Source: Gemmatimonadaceae bacterium
GTDB taxonomy: Bacteria > Gemmatimonadota > Gemmatimonadetes > Gemmatimonadales > Gemmatimonadaceae
Direction: 5' to 3'
Assembly (NCBI GenBank): GCA_051859245.1
Contig: JBHYGA010000001.1
Location: 992,001-1,056,000, forward strand
DNA: 64,000 bases
The notes under the pieces are model-generated. The model worked only from the letters and a program-made list of their open reading frames with translations, did not search any database and was not told the DNA's origin. Below are positions 53,876 to 63,253 of this stretch, in pieces. Every line of letters begins with the position of its first letter. The stretch's first letter is position 1. Both the position numbers and the translations under genes were made by a program.

Positions 53876-54142
53876 CTACACAAACATGGCGGGACTGATT
53901 TCCAGCGAGACTTCGGAAATTCGATGAGCGGGAATACCACTCCGACGCGCGTGCTCCAGTACGGCTTCCGGGTTGGGCGCAATGTACTCACAATAGATCT
54001 TGCCTTCGGCGTCGGACACGTAGCTCTTAACCCAGACCACCTCAGGCATATCTGCGAGCACGGCGTTCGAACTGCGGCCCGCAGCGGCGAGCTGTTCCGG
54101 TGTGAGTTGACCAACATTGCGTTCAATGATGTAACGCGGCAC
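53876..54142 (-). CDS. DUF4242-family small protein
   Basis: MPRYIIER, W..SYV...KIYC.Y.AP..E....HAR.SG.PA.RI.EV; GGAG RBS. Confidence 0.85.
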   Translation of the reverse strand: MPRYIIERNVGQLTPEQLAAAGRSSNAVLADMPEVVWVKSYVSDAEGKIYCEYIAPNPEAVLEHARRSGIPAHRISEVSLEISPAMFV

Positions 54143-54175: not shown

Positions 54176-57100
54176 TCAGGAAAGGGATACTGCGTGCAAC
54201 AAGCCCGGTTCATTCAGTTCCTGCGCGATCTCTCGCGCGGCTGCAGCGGCTTTCGCAGCCCCAGCGACATCATTCAGCAATGTGTTCGCGTGAGCGAGTC
54301 GATGCTGCATCCAGCCTTCACCACGTCGATCCGCGAGATCAACGCGGAGCAGCAACGACTGCGTGAAGCGTTCGCGCGCCTCTTCAAGTCGTCCGCTGGC
54401 GATGGCCACGTCACCAAGCGTAGCGTACGCGTGCGCGCGCAATTGCAGCTCACCGGTTTGCTCGGTGACTCGCACCGCCTCCACGAGTGCCGTGCGCGCT
54501 TCATCCCATCGTTTGAGCTGATGCAGTGATGCGCCAAGACTGTTCAGAATCAGCGCTTCGTGCACGCGGTCTGCATTTTCGCGGCAAAGTCGCAGCGCAA
54601 CCTCATAATGGTTCACGGCTTCCCGATACTCGCCGCGCTGCCAGTGCACGATACCGAGGGCGTTGCGCACCGTCAGCTCACGCTTGCGATCACCCACACG
54701 CACGGCGAGCGCGAGTGCGTCTTCGTATCGCGCGATAATCTGTTCGGGCGCGACATCGAGCTGTCGCTCGGCACGCGCGAGCCCGTCCAGCGCTTCGGCC
54801 TCTCCGGCCGCGTTGCCCGACGAGAGATGCACCGCACGCGCACGTTCCCAACTGTCGCGCGCCTGCTCCGGCTCGTGGAGTCGTTCGTAAGCCAGGGCCA
54901 GTCGACGCCACATCATGGCGGTATTGACGTGATCCTCAAGCTGCGCAAAGAGCTCCGCCGCGCGACGCAGATGCGGCAGGGCCTCAGACAACCGGCTGAG
55001 CCCCACCAATACCTCACCGAGTGATCGACTGGCGTGCGCCGAGCCTTCTGCGAAGCGTGCCTTCAGGTTGATGTCGAGCGCCTGCTGATACGTGGCGAGC
55101 GATTCCTCTACCAACCCCTGCTGCAACTGAATGTGCGCGATAGCGGGCAGTGTGAATGACGAGATCACTGGATGGCGATGTTCGAGGCCGTCGTTCATAA
55201 GCCGATGAAAGTATTCGAGCGCACGATCGTAGTCGCCGAGGTCGCGATGCACGGTGCCGATCACGTTGAGCAGTGCACCGTAGCGTACGGGATTGTCAGT
55301 CGCGGCCGTACGTTCCAGAGCGGCTTCCAGCACGGTGAGTGCTCGCGCCGAATCGCCCATCGCGCGCAGGATATTGGCCATGGTTGCCAGGTCGCCGGCT
55401 TCCGCACGCGTATCCGACGCTTCCCGGCCGAGCTCCAGCACGCGCTCGATGATGGCCAGCGCATCGGCATGTCGTCCTTCATGTGATCGGAGCAGGGCAA
55501 TGCTGCGTAATGCGTTGCGCTCACCGGCCGAATCAGCGCGTTCGTTGGCAATGTGTAGCGATGTCTCCAGGGCCCGCTCCGCCGATTGAAATCGGCGCAG
55601 CAACGTGAATGCATCTCCCTGTCGCAAGTACGCCTGCGCCAGTCGCTCCGACGGACCAAACGGCGCCAGCAGCGCAATCAATCGCTCCACCAGTCCCAAC
55701 TGACGGTTCCGCATGCCGAGTGTCTCGGAGAGGCGCTCCTGTCGAAACAGCACGTCCGCTTCGAGGTCGCGCCGCGAACTGTCGTCTGGCATGCGCGCGA
55801 GCCAGCGCTCAACACGTTCGAGCGTATGCAGTGCATCCGCGTTCTGATTAAGGTCCATGGTGCGATCAGCAGACTGCAAACCGTAGTTCACGGCTTCGGC
55901 CCACGACTCGGCACGTCCAAAATGATGCGCGAGTTTATCGACGTGTGATTCCAACCGGCCGGCATAGCGCGCTTCGATTGCCCGACCAACCGCCAGATGC
56001 ATGGACGCACGCTGATGCTCAAGCAAACTGTCGTACGCGACTTCCTGCGTCAGTGCATGCTTGAAGCGAAAGAGGGGCTCCGGCACGACACCGACTTGTT
56101 GCACCAGACCAGAGGCTTTCAGTCGTTCGAGGGCCTGCGGCAGTGCATCGCGCGATTCATACACCGCGTCAAGCACGCCGCGTGCAAAATCTCGACCGAT
56201 CACTGAAGCAATGCGTACCACATCAAGCGCGTGCACGTCAAGCCGATCAATGCGCGTGCGCAGCACGGCTTGTACAGTCTCCGGTACCAGTACTGTTCCT
56301 GTGTCACCCGAGGTGGTGGCCACACCGTCGAGTACCGCCACCGCACCGACTTCACGCAACGCTTCGCACACTTCCTCAAGGAAGAACGGGTTGCCGCCCG
56401 TCCGCTCATGCAGCTGTTGCGCGAGTTCCGGGGAGATATGCGACGCGCCGAGTACCCCGCACGCAATCGCCCAGGTGGCGGCGCCGTCGAGTGGCGTGAG
56501 ATGCAGCACACGCAGGTGATCCGAACTCCCCCACTCGATTGTTGCATCGGGCCGCGAGGTCGCGACGAGCATGAGAGGAGAGTTGGCCAGAATTTCGGAC
56601 AGGTTGCGAAGTGCCGCTCGTGACGCTTCATCCGCCCAGTGCCAGTCTTCCAGCAGCAACAACGTTGGCTGCGCGTGCGATCCCACGGTGAGAAGTGCGG
56701 CAATCGCGTCGAGCATGGCGCTTTGCAGGAGCTCGCCACGCAACTGTTCGGGCACAGGATACGCTGCACTTGGTATGGAGAGCAGCGCGAGCAAAAGCGG
56801 AAGGAACTCTTCGAGTGAGCGATCAATCGCGCGTGTCGAGAGCAGCAGGGCTTCGTGGCGCTCGGAGGGTGTTCCGCCTTCCGGCATCGCGAGTGCGTCG
56901 GCGATGGTTTCGATAAACGGTGCGAATGGGGTACTTCGGGCGTACGCATCGCAGTGCCCCACAAGCACTCGGACATCCGACGCGAAGGCGCCCGCGCGAA
57001 GCTCTCGCAACAAACGGCTCTTGCCAACACCTGCCTCGCCCACGATGGCGGTGAAGCTCCCGCTCCCCTGACGCACCGCCGCAAGTCGGGCCAACAGTTC

Positions 57101-58855
57101 GGCGCGTTCGCGTTCGCGACCAACGAATGGTGTCAGCGAATCGATCGCCGCTCCATCGAGACGAGATCGTACGTCCGATTCGCCAATCACCACGAACGTG
57201 CCAACGGGTATGCCATCCGAGGACGTGGTCGTTCCTCGCGCTGCCGCTGTGCGCACGAATGGCGTGACCAACCGCCGTGCTTCTGCGCTGATCACGATGG
57301 TATCGGGATCCGCGGCCGCATTCAGTCGTGAGGCGACGTCAACCGGTGCGCCACTCAGCCGATAACGTCGGTCTTCATTGGCGGACTGCTGCACGACCAC
57401 CGGACCTACGTGCACTCCAACGCGCAAACGCAGTGCGATCGGAATCCTTGCTGGTAGCGTTGTTGTGAGATCGCGGACACGCGCCTGCAGCCCGATGGCA
57501 GCTCGAACACCAGAGAGCGCGTCTTCATCGTGCGCCGTTGGTACCCCGAACAACATGACCAGACTGTCGCCGGTCACCTGATTCAACACGCCGCCGTGGG
57601 CCTTGGCCGTCTCCGCAGCGGCTTCGCGAATCTGCGCCAGGACACCGTCTGCCTCGTCTGGAGCGAGACGTTCAAACAGTGCATCGTGACCATCAATCGT
57701 GCACACGACGAGCGTCACATGTCGCCGCTCGCCGCTGCGCGAAATGCGCGTGTCCCGCGTGGGATCTGGCGCAGCGCGGCCCTCATTTAGACTGGCCGGT
57801 TCTGCGGTGATTGGGCGCGTGGTGCAGGCGAGCAACGCGCCGAGCAGCTGCGCGGCGTCGGCATAACGATCGCCGGGACGTTTCGCGAGGAGGGTGCGCA
57901 CGACGGCTTCAACATCGGGTGGCACATCGGAGCGCGCCTGCGAAAACGGGGCCGGGTCGGCCGAAAGCGTTGCCACCAGCAACGCCTGATCCGCGCTCCC
58001 ACGAAACGGTCGAACTCCCGCCAGCATTTCGTACATCACGACGCCGAGCGACCAAAGATCGGTGCGGTGATCGACTGTTTCGCCGAAGGCCTGCTCCGGA
58101 CTCATGTAGGCAAGCGTACCGATTACGGCCGTTGCCTGCGTGGCTGTGACATCCGACAACTTGGCAATCCCGAAATCGAGGATCTTGACCAGACCGTCGG
58201 CCGTGATCATGACATTCGCCGGCTTGATGTCGCGGTGCACGATGCCGCGCTGGTGCGCCTTGATCAGTCCGCGCGTGATCTCTGCGCTGATACGAATCGC
58301 TTCCGCCACCGGGAGCGGGCCGCGCGCGATGCAACGGTCGAGCGTTTCGCCGTCATAACACGCCATGACGATGTGCAATGTGCCGTCGGACATTTCGCCG
58401 ATTTCGTGCACCGTGCAAATGTTCGGATGCTCAATGGCCGCCGCGGCACGTGCCTCGACAAGGAAGCGCTTCTTCGCCACCGGATCTTCGCTGAGATGCG
58501 TTGGAAGAAACTTCAGCGCGACCTCTCGACCAAGTCGATCATCGCTGGCGCGATAGACCACACCCATGCCGCCTTTGCCCAGCTGTTCGAGCAGGCGGTA
58601 ACGCGAGTGCGCCGGAAGAGACAGCGCCGGCGTCGACACAAGCGCGGGTGAGGGCAGCAGTGGAGACATGACTTCTTCCACCAGCTGGTCCAGTACGCCC
58701 CGTCGCTCGTGCGCGGCGAGCAGCGCTTGAACCTCGGCTCGTACGCTTGCGTCGGGCGCCACGCGCAGAAGAAACGATTCGCGCTCAGGTCGCGGCTGCG
58801 TTAGCGCGTCCTGAAACAACGCCTCCACGGCGGCCCATTTTTCGGCGGCGTTCAC
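54176..58855 (-). CDS. Ser/Thr kinase - degenerate class III cyclase - STAND (AAA_16) ATPase - TPR multidomain protein
   Basis: GKGGMG, VALK, HRDIKPAN, DFG, YMSPEQ; GERRHVT..GD..FG..RVGVH cyclase fold; FVGRERE, GEAGVGKS, LLEDWHWAD, GGNPFF, F.H.L; long TPR array; no TM. Confidence 0.9.
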   Translation of the reverse strand: MNAAEKWAAVEALFQDALTQPRPERESFLLRVAPDASVRAEVQALLAAHERRGVLDQLVEEVMSPLLPSPALVSTPALSLPAHSRYRLLEQLGKGGMGVVYRASDDRLGREVALKFLPTHLSEDPVAKKRFLVEARAAAAIEHPNICTVHEIGEMSDGTLHIVMACYDGETLDRCIARGPLPVAEAIRISAEITRGLIKAHQRGIVHRDIKPANVMITADGLVKILDFGIAKLSDVTATQATAVIGTLAYMSPEQAFGETVDHRTDLWSLGVVMYEMLAGVRPFRGSADQALLVATLSADPAPFSQARSDVPPDVEAVVRTLLAKRPGDRYADAAQLLGALLACTTRPITAEPASLNEGRAAPDPTRDTRISRSGERRHVTLVVCTIDGHDALFERLAPDEADGVLAQIREAAAETAKAHGGVLNQVTGDSLVMLFGVPTAHDEDALSGVRAAIGLQARVRDLTTTLPARIPIALRLRVGVHVGPVVVQQSANEDRRYRLSGAPVDVASRLNAAADPDTIVISAEARRLVTPFVRTAAARGTTTSSDGIPVGTFVVIGESDVRSRLDGAAIDSLTPFVGRERERAELLARLAAVRQGSGSFTAIVGEAGVGKSRLLRELRAGAFASDVRVLVGHCDAYARSTPFAPFIETIADALAMPEGGTPSERHEALLLSTRAIDRSLEEFLPLLLALLSIPSAAYPVPEQLRGELLQSAMLDAIAALLTVGSHAQPTLLLLEDWHWADEASRAALRNLSEILANSPLMLVATSRPDATIEWGSSDHLRVLHLTPLDGAATWAIACGVLGASHISPELAQQLHERTGGNPFFLEEVCEALREVGAVAVLDGVATTSGDTGTVLVPETVQAVLRTRIDRLDVHALDVVRIASVIGRDFARGVLDAVYESRDALPQALERLKASGLVQQVGVVPEPLFRFKHALTQEVAYDSLLEHQRASMHLAVGRAIEARYAGRLESHVDKLAHHFGRAESWAEAVNYGLQSADRTMDLNQNADALHTLERVERWLARMPDDSSRRDLEADVLFRQERLSETLGMRNRQLGLVERLIALLAPFGPSERLAQAYLRQGDAFTLLRRFQSAERALETSLHIANERADSAGERNALRSIALLRSHEGRHADALAIIERVLELGREASDTRAEAGDLATMANILRAMGDSARALTVLEAALERTAATDNPVRYGALLNVIGTVHRDLGDYDRALEYFHRLMNDGLEHRHPVISSFTLPAIAHIQLQQGLVEESLATYQQALDINLKARFAEGSAHASRSLGEVLVGLSRLSEALPHLRRAAELFAQLEDHVNTAMMWRRLALAYERLHEPEQARDSWERARAVHLSSGNAAGEAEALDGLARAERQLDVAPEQIIARYEDALALAVRVGDRKRELTVRNALGIVHWQRGEYREAVNHYEVALRLCRENADRVHEALILNSLGASLHQLKRWDEARTALVEAVRVTEQTGELQLRAHAYATLGDVAIASGRLEEARERFTQSLLLRVDLADRRGEGWMQHRLAHANTLLNDVAGAAKAAAAAREIAQELNEPGLLHAVSLS

Positions 58856-58862
58856 TCGGCGT

Positions 58863-59450
58863 TCACTCCGCGCTCAGTTCACGATTTAACCACGCGCGTG
58901 CCGCCGTCCAGTCACGCTTTACCGTGGCCGGTGAAAGATTCAGCGCCTCAGCCGTTTCTTCGATACTCAAGCCAACGAAAAAGCGGCATTCGACAATCCG
59001 ACCGTGTCGCGGATTGAGTGCGGCCAATCGCTCGAGCGCGTCATCGAGTGCGGTGAGATGATCGAGGTTCTGATCCACCGCAGACATCTGTGCATCAGCG
59101 TGCTCAAGCGGCACCAGCAGCTCGCCGCCACCGCGTTTCTGGGCGCGTCGCGTTTCGGCATAGTCGACCAGCACGCGTCGCATTGTGCGCGCCGCCATGG
59201 CCAAGACATGTGTGCGGTCTCGCCATTGCATCCGATCCAGACCTTCCAAACGCAAGAACGCCTCGTGGACCAGTCCGTCCGTCTCAAGCGTATGCCCCTC
59301 GGCCTCACCAGCAAGTTGACGCCGCGCAATAAGCCGCAGACGGTCGTGTAGTAAACCCAGCACTTGCTTGAGTGCGTTAGCGTCACCGTGACTGGCGATA
59401 TGCAGCAGCCGAGTGACGTCGCCTTGATCGGGGATCTCTTGGACGGTCAT
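58863..59450 (-). CDS. ECF sigma factor, TIGR02999/ECF43-like (kinase-associated)
   Basis: VT.LL...G, HTL....LVHEAFLRL, W.DR.H, MRRVLVD.A..R.A.KRGG, ECRFF.GL, TVKRDW..ARAWL. Confidence 0.92.
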   Translation of the reverse strand: MTVQEIPDQGDVTRLLHIASHGDANALKQVLGLLHDRLRLIARRQLAGEAEGHTLETDGLVHEAFLRLEGLDRMQWRDRTHVLAMAARTMRRVLVDYAETRRAQKRGGGELLVPLEHADAQMSAVDQNLDHLTALDDALERLAALNPRHGRIVECRFFVGLSIEETAEALNLSPATVKRDWTAARAWLNRELSAE

Positions 59451-59631
59451 GCCAGGGCAGTAAGGGAAGGGAGGCCGTTCACTTAAGGAGGCGGGAACGT
59501 CAGGCGAAACGGCTCATCCGCCTTGTGGGCAGGTCAATCTACGTCTTCTGGCGAATAGCCCCACGCGGTCGCGTGATCGAGTTTGAAGGAACGCTACCAC
59601 TTGAACCACACATCAGTGAACGGAGAGTGTC

Positions 59632-60195
59632 ATGGAAGACCGACTCGCGACCGAACGTAGCACCGCAGGAACCACTGGCCGTCTGGACAACACGACCGCC
59701 GGCCAGCTCATGCACCTAAGCGACATGAACGACTACGAAATCGCAGACGGCGAACCGGATATCCGAGGTTGGGATGTGCGGGCGAGCAACGGCGACAAGA
59801 TTGGGGACGTGGAGGATCTGCTGGTTGACTCGGCGACACTGCGCGTCCGGTACATCGAAGTCAAGCTCGAGAAGGATCTTGTCGCTAATGCCGATCGTCG
59901 CCATGCGTTGCTGCCCATCGGTTCGGCGCGCCTCGACGATGATGACGACAATGTGCTCGTCAGCATGGACAGTGAGCGGTTGCGTGCACTGCCGCCCTAT
60001 GTACGCGGCACGCTGAATCGCGAATATGAGCAGTCGGTGGTGGACGGATTTCGCCGCCCGGACGATCGCGTCATGTCGACGGACGCCGACCGCGATTTTT
60101 ATGACGGCGACCAGTTCGACGATCGCCGCACGTTCGAGACACGTCGGACTCCCGGCCGTGAAGACACCGGGTACATGCGTCGATTGGGCGAGTAA
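59632..60195 (+). CDS. PRC-barrel domain protein
   Basis: EPDIRGW.V....G.KIG.V.DLLVD....VRY; GGAG RBS. Confidence 0.85.
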   Translation: MEDRLATERSTAGTTGRLDNTTAGQLMHLSDMNDYEIADGEPDIRGWDVRASNGDKIGDVEDLLVDSATLRVRYIEVKLEKDLVANADRRHALLPIGSARLDDDDDNVLVSMDSERLRALPPYVRGTLNREYEQSVVDGFRRPDDRVMSTDADRDFYDGDQFDDRRTFETRRTPGREDTGYMRRLGE

Positions 60196-60204
60196 CGATT
60201 GGTC

Positions 60205-62109
60205 CTACGTTGGGGTTGGTTGATACAGCAGCGCGTCGTGCACTTCGCGACGCGCTGCGGTTAACCGGTCCACGTCTTCGCCAACCGCTCGCGCGGCCTC
60301 AATGAGCGTCGTGAGCGGCGCCACGTCTGACTCACCGGCGTGCAGGCGCAACAGATCGAGTCGTATTGCCTCGAGTGCCGCAACGCTCCGGGCCAGTCGT
60401 GCGCCGGCCGCGTTTCGTCGATCAGCCAGTAGCTCGTTGTTGGCGGAGTCGGGCGCCAGGGCGGCCACCACATCCAGATCGGCGCGTGCCTCTGCTGCCT
60501 GCGCCTCGAGCGCGGCGACCGTCGCGGGCAGATCGCGCAGCTGTTCACGATACGCTTGCGGCAGCGCAGCAAACAGTTCGCCCGCCGCAACGCCGAGCGC
60601 GGCTTCCGTGGCGCGAAACACGCCTCCGCCCACTGCGCGTGAACGAGCCGGTGCGCCAAGCCGTTTTGCCAGCCACGCGCCGGCGCGACTGCTCCAGAGT
60701 CGTTCGCGAATACCGGTCTGCAACAGATCACGCACACGGTGTGGAATGAACTGCACATCCAGCGCGTTGCTGATGGCGCCAAACAACATGGTGGTCAGCA
60801 CGGGCGCCACGATCACAATTGGCGCCATTTCATTTTCCCTGATCGTACCGGCAATCAGCAGGCCGATCGTGCTGGCCAACCAGCCAGCCGCCCCCAACGT
60901 CGCAACGCGCAACAACCGCGGCCCTGGGCCTTCTGGTGTGCTCCGTATGAGCGCGTCCGTCTCGCTCCGCTCCCGACGCGCCACGCCGAGTGCCGTGCGC
61001 AGATCGGCCAGCGTATGCCCGGCTTTGAACTGAAGGCGGGCCTGATTGAGGTGGTACCCGATGATCGGAAACAATGGCAGCGACGTAATTGCCGCGAGGA
61101 GGACGATGTCGGCTGGACCATCCGGCCGATTGCCGGTGACCCACGCAATAAGATTGGCCAGCGTCATAAAGCCAAAGACTGCTGACCAACCCGCGTACGG
61201 CACCAGAAGCGGGTTGCGCGCCGAGAGCCACGCACGAAGCGATGTGGGCAGCACCGGACGTGCATCGGATGACGGCGCGAGCGCTGCGGCAACAGCTTCG
61301 CCGTCCTGAAAGCGATGTGCAGGATCACGTTCAAGACATCGATCGATTGTGGTGCCGATCACACTCGGCAATCCCGGTGCGATCTGCAGGACGCTCGTTG
61401 GTACCTCGGTTGCCTGACGGACAAGAAGCGCCGGAAGATTACTCGTCTCGAATGGCAGACGCCCACTCACGGCGAGGTACCCCACGACGCCGAGCGCGTA
61501 AATGTCGCTGCGTCCGTCGATTGATGAACCGGCCGCCTGTTCAGGGCTCATGAAATGCGCGGTGCCCATGAGCATGCCGGGATCGGTGCTCGGGCCCGCG
61601 TGTGTTGCGCCGTGCGCAATGCCGAAATCGGTGACGAGCGCGCGCCCCGTACTGGCTTCGAGCAGAATGTTATCTGGTTTCACGTCACGGTGAACGATGC
61701 CACGTCCATGGGCGTATGCGAGTGCCCAGGCAACCTCGCGCAGGACACGCGCGGCATCGGCGGGAGGGAGCGGACCCCGGGTGCGCAGCCGCTCGCCGAG
61801 CGTTTCGCCTTCCACGTACGCCATCACGAAATACACGATGCCGCGCGCTTCACCAACGCGGTGAATGGGCACGATATGCGGATGTGACAGACCGGCCGCG
61901 GTTCGCGCCTCGCGCAAGAATCGAGCGCGCGTTGCTTCCGACGCGAGTTGCGAGGGGAGCGTCTTGATTGCCACATCGCGGTCGAGCTGCACGTCTCGCG
62001 CGAGGTAGACAATGCCCATGCCGCCGCGGCCCAATTCGCGCTGTAGCGAGTATTCGCCCGCCAGAGCGGACTGCAGCGCGAGGAATTCGTTGTCGTGGGG
62101 TGAGGTCAT
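60205..62109 (-). CDS. Ser/Thr protein kinase with ~4 TM helices and C-terminal helical domain
   Basis: ELGRGGMG, VAIK, HRDVKPDN, DFG, MSPEQ; hydrophobic segments after the kinase domain. Confidence 0.9.
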   Translation of the reverse strand: MTSPHDNEFLALQSALAGEYSLQRELGRGGMGIVYLARDVQLDRDVAIKTLPSQLASEATRARFLREARTAAGLSHPHIVPIHRVGEARGIVYFVMAYVEGETLGERLRTRGPLPPADAARVLREVAWALAYAHGRGIVHRDVKPDNILLEASTGRALVTDFGIAHGATHAGPSTDPGMLMGTAHFMSPEQAAGSSIDGRSDIYALGVVGYLAVSGRLPFETSNLPALLVRQATEVPTSVLQIAPGLPSVIGTTIDRCLERDPAHRFQDGEAVAAALAPSSDARPVLPTSLRAWLSARNPLLVPYAGWSAVFGFMTLANLIAWVTGNRPDGPADIVLLAAITSLPLFPIIGYHLNQARLQFKAGHTLADLRTALGVARRERSETDALIRSTPEGPGPRLLRVATLGAAGWLASTIGLLIAGTIRENEMAPIVIVAPVLTTMLFGAISNALDVQFIPHRVRDLLQTGIRERLWSSRAGAWLAKRLGAPARSRAVGGGVFRATEAALGVAAGELFAALPQAYREQLRDLPATVAALEAQAAEARADLDVVAALAPDSANNELLADRRNAAGARLARSVAALEAIRLDLLRLHAGESDVAPLTTLIEAARAVGEDVDRLTAARREVHDALLYQPTPT

Positions 62110-62164: not shown

Positions 62165-63253
62165 TCAGGGCGGTGAGTCCGCGTGGTGTGTGAAACTCAG
62201 CTCGAAGGGTCTCGTGAAGTATCGCTCCCGCCAGGTGGGGTCGTGCGCATCAAGAACGATGGCGACTGCAGCTCCTACAGGATATACCACCTCGCGCCGA
62301 TGTTTCGCGAGGTTGGCGCCTGCGGTCCCACGCACGATGGCGCGAAAAATGGAGTCGCGGACGGTTGGCCACGAACGACCGTAGAGAGCGCTGGCGTGAG
62401 CATCTGCCGCGGCAACGGAAGCCACGCGGTACTCCGTGTAGCGTGCGACGCCCTCCTGCCACAGCTGAAAGTTGAGATAGCGCGCGTCGTTTGCAGAAAG
62501 CGCGGCGTGCAATGCGGCATACGCAGTGCGCACCTCTGCAATTCGTGACGGGCGTACGGAGACACTGAACGTGTCAAGCGCAGCAACAAGTGCGTGCGTC
62601 AACTGATCGAAGCGTTGCTGCACACGCGCGGAGTCGTACGGGAAGGCGTAGTTGAGCGCCCACATGCCGGTAGTGTCGCCGCGCGCGAGGTCAAGCGCGT
62701 TCACGCCGTCGTAATAGCGTGGCTGCGCGAACTGGAGTTGATGAAAATGTTCGTGCAGCAACGTAAGCACCCATTCTGCGGGTGATTTCCCCGTGGCTTC
62801 GGCCTGTCCGATCACGACAACGGGTGACGCGTTGCCAAGGGGAAAAGTGGCGAGCAGTGCGGACGGGAAGATGCGCGTTCGCGTGTGCACGGCTGCGCGA
62901 AGCATCGAGTCGATGCCCACGCTCGCGAAGCCCGCAGGCACGCGCGTCTCGGTAGTCGTTGGCGACGACAGCGGCGTGACGAGATACTCGCGCTCGCCTG
63001 CTACGAGCAGTATTGGAAACGCCGTTGCGCCCCAGCCCGTCCACGCGCTGTCACCATAACGCGCGGCCAGTGTGTACGCGTCGAGAATCCCCGCGCGATC
63101 CACTGTCGGCAGTGTGTCGATAGATCGCGACGCCTTGGCGCGTGCGAACGGTGGCGCTCCTGGCGTCGGGCTGAAGCGGACAACGCCGGTGTCACGTGAA
63201 AGGGCGACGCACGCGAAGAGCACCACGCCGAGCATCGGAATCTGACGCATCAC
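62165..63253 (-). CDS. Secreted putative metallopeptidase (HExxH)
   Basis: Signal peptide; LLHEHFHQLQ and downstream QEGVARY. Confidence 0.65.
   Translation of the reverse strand: MMRQIPMLGVVLFACVALSRDTGVVRFSPTPGAPPFARAKASRSIDTLPTVDRAGILDAYTLAARYGDSAWTGWGATAFPILLVAGEREYLVTPLSSPTTTETRVPAGFASVGIDSMLRAAVHTRTRIFPSALLATFPLGNASPVVVIGQAEATGKSPAEWVLTLLHEHFHQLQFAQPRYYDGVNALDLARGDTTGMWALNYAFPYDSARVQQRFDQLTHALVAALDTFSVSVRPSRIAEVRTAYAALHAALSANDARYLNFQLWQEGVARYTEYRVASVAAADAHASALYGRSWPTVRDSIFRAIVRGTAGANLAKHRREVVYPVGAAVAIVLDAHDPTWRERYFTRPFELSFTHHADSPP

Follow-up and report, generated by a model that had tools for sequence, protein, structure and literature searches.

A Gemmatimonadaceae clade of ECF sigma factors has, by alignment, an aspartate fixed in the column at which kinase-activated relatives carry their phosphorylated threonine. 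The member described here is encoded on a stretch of 64,000 nucleotides (the window), next to an intact gene for a Hanks-type kinase, and is called ECF43-type in the sense of TIGR02999/PF07638 membership together with an adjacent kinase, not of the Casas-Pastor group models. As aligned, the canonical phospho-acceptor is absent from this sigma. Given that Asp58 is not phosphorylatable by a Hanks kinase, the switch described for EcfP is unavailable, yet the pair is still coupled, and the control of sigma and kinase must depart from that of the textbook systems. The reading favoured here, which has about an even chance of being correct, is that the charge of region 2.2 is hard-wired and that control has moved to hold and release by the kinase and/or to another phosphosite.

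Register of the acceptor column

The sigma protein scores 191 bits against TIGR02999 (cut-off 126.15) and 167.2 bits against PF07638 (cut-off 21.1). The minus-strand codons of its region 2.2 motif are CAT ACG CTT GAG ACG GAC GGA CTG GTC CAC GAG, which read H53 T54 L55 E56 T57 D58 G59 L60 V61 H62 E63 and confirm the HTLETDGLVHE of the initial annotation, with GAC at 59279-59277 encoding D58. Glu56 is the first position of the DAED-equivalent motif, and ETDG, whose fourth position is Gly59, has two acidic residues to the three of DAED. An uncharged region 2.2 with a Thr acceptor at position 3, by which the group is defined, was not found: the sequence is E56-T57-D58-G59, with Asp in the acceptor column.

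In the supplement of PMC13147305, the EcfK phosphopeptide AGLQATELVHEAWMR carries its phosphate at residue 6, corresponding to T51. This places the acceptor two residues ahead of L-V-H-E, just as D58 stands ahead of L60-V61-H62-E63. For EcfP, two reviews give STTA at the DAED position, with the second T phosphorylated. The window sigma was aligned by MAFFT with the 150 best 50%-identity representatives from a library of 1.84 billion proteins, and the motif aligns without gaps, anchored on the invariant H-T-L and L-V-H-E. In the 150 representatives the D58 column holds Thr 133 times (G3, V3, N3, S2, A2, D1, H1, R1 and one gap otherwise), in agreement with the 88% Thr published for the acceptor position (PMC13147305). 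The Thr57 column, directly before the acceptor column, is made up of T70, P44, A18, S10, R5, G1, D1 and one gap; the Glu56 column (position 1) is acidic in 21 of the 150 and the Gly59 column (position 4) in 17.

The initial annotation had placed Asp at the Thr position and Glu at the first position of the motif, and both the EcfK phosphopeptide register and the alignment of 150 representatives bear this out. Thr57, which it had weighed as the possible phosphosite, falls one column before the phosphosite of EcfK and EcfP, and D58 falls on it. The QPTA consensus that it had given is real, L-Q-P-T being the commonest form (35 of the 150 best representatives); the form quoted in PMC13147305 is QTTA. 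A PDB sequence search with the sigma gave one weak match, 9isn_F (E 2.4e-4), in which the motif is gapped and which is of no use for the register. The motif stretch is identical to the window in an independent contig of run X1.

Table 1. Features of the window, with positions counted from its first letter, and the further sigma-kinase pairs of the host genome, with positions by contig (C).
Feature	Position	Strand	Basis
DUF4242 / SCO4226-like gene, 88 aa, 33 nt downstream of the kinase gene	53876..54142	-	PF14026, 92.8 bits
Partner gene, 1559 aa: N-terminal helical domain, Hanks kinase, cyclase-homology domain, AAA_16 (STAND-like) NTPase, TPR array	54176..58855	-	ORF and profiles
TPR / MalT-like repeats, about residues 1090-1559, with stop codon	54176..55588	-	TPR_12, 145.5 bits; several further TPR families
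AAA_16 NTPase domain, residues 576-764	56564..57130	-	PF13191, 94.6 bits
Class III cyclase-homology domain, residues 378-531 (putative catalysis)	57263..57724	-	PF00211, 43.7 bits
Hanks-type Ser/Thr kinase domain, residues 86-334	57854..58600	-	PF00069, 160.8 bits
Three-helix domain, kinase residues 1-72, predicted sigma domain 4 binder	58640..58855	-	No Pfam family; models
11-bp tandem duplication (GAGTGAACGCC twice) at sigma stop / kinase start	58847..58868	-	Sequence
ECF sigma gene, 195 aa (sigma-2 and sigma-4), TIGR02999/PF07638	58863..59450	-	ORF and profile scores
Region 2.2 motif H53-T-L-E56-T57-D58-G59-L-V-H-E63, DAED/STTA-equivalent position	59262..59294	-	Sequence and alignment
GAC codon of Asp58, column of phospho-Thr EcfK T51 / EcfP T63	59277..59279	-	Alignment
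Promoter-like bipartite motif TGAGCC-N16-TCCCGCCT, about 40 nt upstream of sigma start	59489..59516	-	Upstream-region alignment
PRC-barrel protein gene (weak puhA-like match), divergent from the sigma gene	59632..60195	+	Pfam
Second Ser/Thr kinase gene, 634 aa, beyond the PRC-barrel gene	60205..62109	-	Pfam
Further sigma-kinase pairs of the host genome	C4:124319-127240, C4:264920-267613, C4:568301-571003, C5:312238-314835, C1:550888-554097

Spread and ancestry of the aspartate

Among the 120 nearest 90%-identity clusters, which are 69-100% identical to the window sigma, position 58 is D in 119 and E in one, and E56 and T57 are each present in all 120. The Asp58 codon at 27 genome loci is GAC 14 times and GAT 13 times, and ACC, ACG, ACT and ACA are all used for Thr57. 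To judge from these sequences, T57 and D58 are held by selection, beyond recent descent alone. The host genome contains seven TIGR02999 genes above cut-off, and the six other than the window sigma read QPTA, DTTA (twice), QPTE and STTD (twice), all with Thr in the D58 column. The ETD motif is found in 10 of 121 genomes of the same GTDB family, that is, in the host and nine others, in a sample that partly shares contigs with the 27 loci and includes two genomes (G007 and G076) counted only as genomes without an ETD copy. In the two congeners no match exceeded 53% identity to the window sigma query.

A tree of 86 sigmas places the window sigma among Thr-type TIGR02999 sigmas. The 27 Asp rows together with L040 are split from the 58 other rows with an SH-aLRT of 100, and the same split is recovered at 99 with the eight motif columns removed, L040 then lying outside the Asp rows with weak support (27). 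The L040 sigma reads ETSG, its Ser codon being TCC, and two close relatives of the Asp clade read ETSA (L080) and ETGA (L054); the tree groups neighbouring the Asp clade are dominated by Thr. The root of the tree was not inferred, and a root anywhere outside the Asp group makes Asp the derived state. The aspartate thus looks evolutionarily derived, in a clade among Thr-type relatives. A second small Asp lineage, QTDA, accounts for three of the 120 clusters around P0143 (P0143, P0271 and P0283) and has Thr-type neighbours; it suggests more than one origin for the substitution.

The partner kinase and the three-gene cassette

The kinase ORF begins 8 nt past the sigma stop. Its motifs G-x-G-G-M-G, ALK, HRDxKPxN, DFG and SPE are intact in the window protein, in 16 Asp-type relatives and in the kinases of L040, L046 and L054 (20 of 20 aligned kinases). 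The repeats of the partner match TPR_MalT at 42 bits, under the cut-off of 45, and TIGR03903 gives a partial match over residues 109-1033 at 459.6 bits, below its cut-off of 705.75. A kinase ORF lies directly downstream of the sigma in 23 of the 27 Asp-type loci, the remaining four stopping at a contig edge, and the domain order is identical to that of the window partner in all 16 full-length Asp-type relatives, with sizes of about 1560-1690 aa. The claim of the initial annotation that the partner kinase is intact therefore stands, the catalytic motifs being kept and the gene conserved across the clade. The tie between Asp and STAND-type kinases that it had proposed to check does not: the same kinase/cyclase/AAA/TPR architecture is found beside DTTA (L046), ETGA (L054) and ETSG (L040) sigmas, which rules out a STAND architecture specific to Asp-type sigmas and indicates that the architecture predates the Asp.

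Sigma stop and kinase start overlap by 4 nt in the relatives, as ATGA or GTGA. In the window the two genes are parted by the tandem duplication, and neither frame is broken. The GTG of the first copy opens a mini-ORF of four codons and the GTG of the second copy is the kinase start. Two further contigs, the independent one of run X1 and one from a second study (X2), carry the duplication without a gap; the X2 contig differs from the window at 29 positions over 530 bases (about 95% alike), run X2 not covering 59144-59415.

Of the related loci, 18 extend beyond the kinase stop, L040, L046 and L054 included, and every one of them has a DUF4242 gene after the kinase, with 61-95% identity by tblastn. 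Sigma, kinase/STAND protein and DUF4242 protein form a conserved three-gene cassette. In most of the 18 loci conservation of the DUF4242 protein exceeds that of the sigma. The PRC-barrel gene and the second kinase gene on the other side of the sigma were rejected as parts of the module, being common only to the closest relative, L018. Among the neighbours (PRC-barrel protein, second kinase, DUF4242, exonuclease and YGGT) Pfam found no anti-sigma family, and an ORF at 62165-63253 has no family match.

An upstream promoter-like motif

In an alignment of 21 upstream regions from Asp-type loci, 80% or more of the sequences retain the TGAGC and CCGCCT columns of the promoter-like motif upstream of the sigma gene. 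The conserved TGAGCC-N16-TCCCGCCT is a candidate for an autoregulated promoter of the sigma gene. Across the host genome the loose pattern TGAGC-N15-19-CCGCCT is not enriched, with 29 matches against 25 in the control, and a stricter pattern has four matches against one in the reversed/complement control. Near-identical copies, TGAGCC-N16-T(C/T)CCGCCT, stand at C1:423798 (+) (L098) and C4:547509 (+) (L099) of this genome. The genes behind them encode a 193-aa ORF product without a family and a 219-aa PEP-CTERM protein, and both are possible members of a putative regulon.

The N-terminal domain of the kinase and its predicted docking

A Pfam search with 20 members of the N-terminal domain, at E up to 10, returned eight families with one member each, none of them recurrent, and AlphaFold2 models the domain as three helices with a mean pLDDT of 81.3. 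An HMM built from residues 4-72 of 20 sigma-adjacent-type kinases matches six ORFs in the whole genome (E up to 0.0052), exactly the six kinases that adjoin TIGR02999 genes, and none of the 33 other Pkinase matches. Of the seven TIGR02999 sigmas in this genome, which has 39 Pkinase matches in all, six have a kinase directly downstream; the N-terminal helical domain is common to these six pairs, and the seventh sigma (C5:931966-932454) has no adjacent kinase. Given that the domain is also found in the kinases of the Thr-type paralogues, it is no innovation of the Asp clade.

The complex of the sigma (42-row alignment) with kinase residues 4-72 (20-row alignment) was predicted with an ipSAE of 0.72, 0.72 and 0.73, three controls scoring 0.00 at best; 116 of 157 solved complexes reach the mark for this score, compared with 2 of 215 mismatched pairs, counts that apply only roughly here, as custom alignments were used. 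The partner has a pLDDT of at least 82, and at least 84% of the contacts are common between runs. The predicted interface on the sigma comprises residues 31-35, 120-135, 145-146, 157-160 and 179-193, and takes in two helices of domain 4, helix 4.1 and the C-terminal one. This surface of sigma domain 4 is needed for the beta-flap and -35 contacts, and the predicted docking surface would overlap them. The model supports binding of the N-terminal domain to sigma domain 4; its score expresses model confidence and may reflect likeness to solved sigma/anti-sigma complexes.

A VIA-align fold search of the N-terminal domain against 48,161 chains gave generic helical matches with a best Z of 5.8 and no anti-sigma or other specific fold among the best 50 listed. 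The initial annotation had proposed that the partner might act as an anti-sigma, inverting the usual logic. The role itself gains some ground from a domain that is confined to sigma-adjacent kinases and predicted to bind sigma domain 4; the inverted logic is something we can only infer.

Other possible acceptors in the sigma

Eight residues are at least 90% Ser/Thr across the 120 clusters of the clade (T13, T54, T57, T89, S162, T166, S173 and T176). The last four fall by position in the sigma-4 helix-turn-helix, and T54 is kept family-wide, in 135 of the 150 best representatives. Thr57 remains, on its conservation, a live and obvious candidate for an alternative acceptor. The column of EcfK T106, aligned from the K-R-G-G-G anchor, is published as T 43% and S 12% (PMC13147305 Table S6) and holds Pro114 in the window sigma, so that the second acceptor of EcfK has no counterpart at this position. 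The same column is S/T in 24 of 120 clusters of the clade and P/A/G in 91, and comprises S43, T24 and P34 in the 150 best representatives; no linker position exceeds 24 of 120 Ser/Thr in the clade.

An acidobacterial QS[TASG]A group (loci L060-L097) forms a clade of 28 rows in which the acceptor column reads T10, A12, S4 and G2 and the preceding residue is Ser in all 28. In this Acidobacteriota-type clade the canonical Thr seems dispensable, and the Ser at -1 may serve as an acceptor.

Proposed mechanism and alternatives

In the favoured reading, Asp58 and Glu56 would give region 2.2 a permanent negative charge, so that binding to the RNA polymerase beta-prime clamp would be independent of phosphorylation at position 58. 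By analogy with EcfK T51E, Asp58 with Glu56 probably confers intrinsic competence for the clamp, and from the same kind of analogy we infer that the sigma may be active without phosphorylation. The most likely route of control would be that the N-terminal three-helix domain of the kinase holds sigma domain 4, and that activation of the STAND/TPR sensor and the kinase releases it. Phosphorylation at Thr57 or another residue could add to this hold and release, or could replace it as the real switch. Several points count against this reading. Compared with Glu or phospho-Thr, Asp is shorter and a weaker mimic; the Gly at position 4 leaves the motif one acidic residue short of DAED; and position 58 may not be the sole determinant, given that EcfK has multiple phosphosites and tolerates T51A (PMC13147305). 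The docking domain, being common to Thr-type pairs, may be only a substrate-recruiting module and not an inhibitor, and the fold search turned up no anti-sigma among its 50 listed matches. A more complete reading joins these parts: the logic would be inverted, the sigma competent through Glu56 and Asp58, and the kinase/cyclase-like/STAND protein an anti-sigma that clamps domain 4 and frees it when the STAND/TPR sensor fires, with the N-terminal domain as the general sigma-docking module of all ECF43-type kinases. That all of this holds together is possible, albeit unlikely.

It is also conceivable, though we are doubtful of it, that the kinase still activates the sigma by the classical logic through a shifted acceptor, Thr57, with Asp58 and Glu56 providing only partial charge. 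Thr57 is kept in 120 of 120 clusters of the clade with four codons in use, in a column that is variable in the family (T70, P44, A18, S10 of 150), and the catalytic motifs of the kinase are conserved. EcfK, moreover, is phosphorylated at five sites (PMC13147305), and the acidobacterial Ser at -1, present in 28 of 28 rows beside a variable acceptor column, hints that a hydroxyl at this position can matter. However, the STTA of EcfP is reported in a review to be phosphorylated only on the second Thr, and Thr is in any case the commonest residue of the Thr57 column family-wide. A kinase-independent Asp58 sigma, controlled by transcription or stability, with the partner kept for other substrates or outputs (cyclic nucleotides, the DUF4242 protein), would fit the extra output and sensor domains of the partner, the constant presence of the DUF4242 gene in the cassette and the conserved promoter-like motif upstream of the sigma, which suggests autoregulation. 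This uncoupling of the pair is nevertheless distinctly improbable: the sigma-kinase start-stop coupling is kept across the clade, and the sigma-linked N-terminal domain is present in all Asp-type kinases and is predicted to bind the window sigma, which argues for a lasting physical link. There is hardly any chance that a sequencing error or an isolated substitution produced the Asp, or that the acceptor column lies elsewhere. Every one of the 120 nearest clusters has D or E at position 58, the 27 loci in which the motif was read come from separate assemblies, ETD occurs in nine other genomes of the 121-genome sample, the independent contig of run X1 is identical, and the alignment is ungapped and anchored on H-T-L and L-V-H-E. 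Artefact, chance and misalignment were rejected on these grounds, the evidence for the register being alignment throughout.

Comparison with known systems

The window pair resembles EcfP/PknT of Vibrio parahaemolyticus (ECF43) in having a TIGR02999/PF07638 sigma, an adjacent Hanks kinase and the region 2.2 position as a regulatory hotspot, as described in PMC8999054, PMC8103513 and PMC13147305. It differs in the motif itself: in the same accounts EcfP carries STTA, which is uncharged, and needs phosphorylation of the second Thr to become active, whereas in the window sigma the motif is ETDG, where Asp stands in place of that Thr and position 1 is Glu. The partner, at 1559 aa and with cyclase-like, AAA and TPR domains, also differs from PknT. 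All ECF43 members lack the DAED motif according to a review. The window pair is, by its sequence, a TIGR02999 member with the ECF43 hallmark of an adjacent kinase, minus the defining uncharged, Thr-bearing region 2.2.

EcfK/PknS of Xanthomonas citri is likewise an ECF43 sigma with a kinase, and as PMC13147305 describes it, the engineered T51E variant is constitutively active and makes PknS dispensable; it is the laboratory counterpart of the natural Asp58. The same source reports five phosphorylated sites in EcfK, tolerance of T51A, and PknS as a transmembrane receptor kinase whose N-terminal extension of about 81 residues, with three to four predicted helices and no assigned function, is comparable to the domain modelled here. 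In that account EcfK still has Thr51 (in QATE) as well as T106, a second functional site, whereas the window sigma has Asp58 and Pro114. The T6SS regulon of the EcfK system is not seen at the window locus.

RseA, RslA, ChrR and other ECF regulators have class I anti-sigma domains, small and helical, that are placed on sigma domain 4. The window domain is similar to them in being a small helical domain predicted to lie over sigma domain 4 surfaces, and unlike them in being fused to a kinase, in having three model helices instead of four and in lacking a sequence-family or specific fold match. In the TOMM kinase/cyclase fusion (TIGR03903) the domains follow one another as they do in the window partner (kinase, cyclase-homology, AAA/TPR), although the partner stays under the cut-off for this family and no TOMM genes lie near the window locus. 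Unlike the TOMM fusion, the partner has a sigma-linked domain at its N-terminus and is coupled to an ECF sigma. PknK of M. tuberculosis is a STAND kinase with a similar domain order.

What is new, on the sequences compared, is that a sigma copy with an acidic acceptor retains its kinase and that a whole clade is fixed in this state. For a natural acidic residue at the acceptor, no description turned up in the literature searched, although Iyer et al. 2020 may cover it and may list the non-Thr 12%. Neither the conserved sigma, kinase/STAND and DUF4242 cassette nor a small N-terminal domain that sets sigma-linked kinases apart, with predicted docking on sigma domain 4, was found described in the same literature. 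A natural lineage has at its switch an acidic residue of the phosphomimetic type used by experimenters, with the kinase still under selection. The pair therefore offers a ready-made test of what else such kinases do to their sigma, and of whether the charge of region 2.2 suffices.
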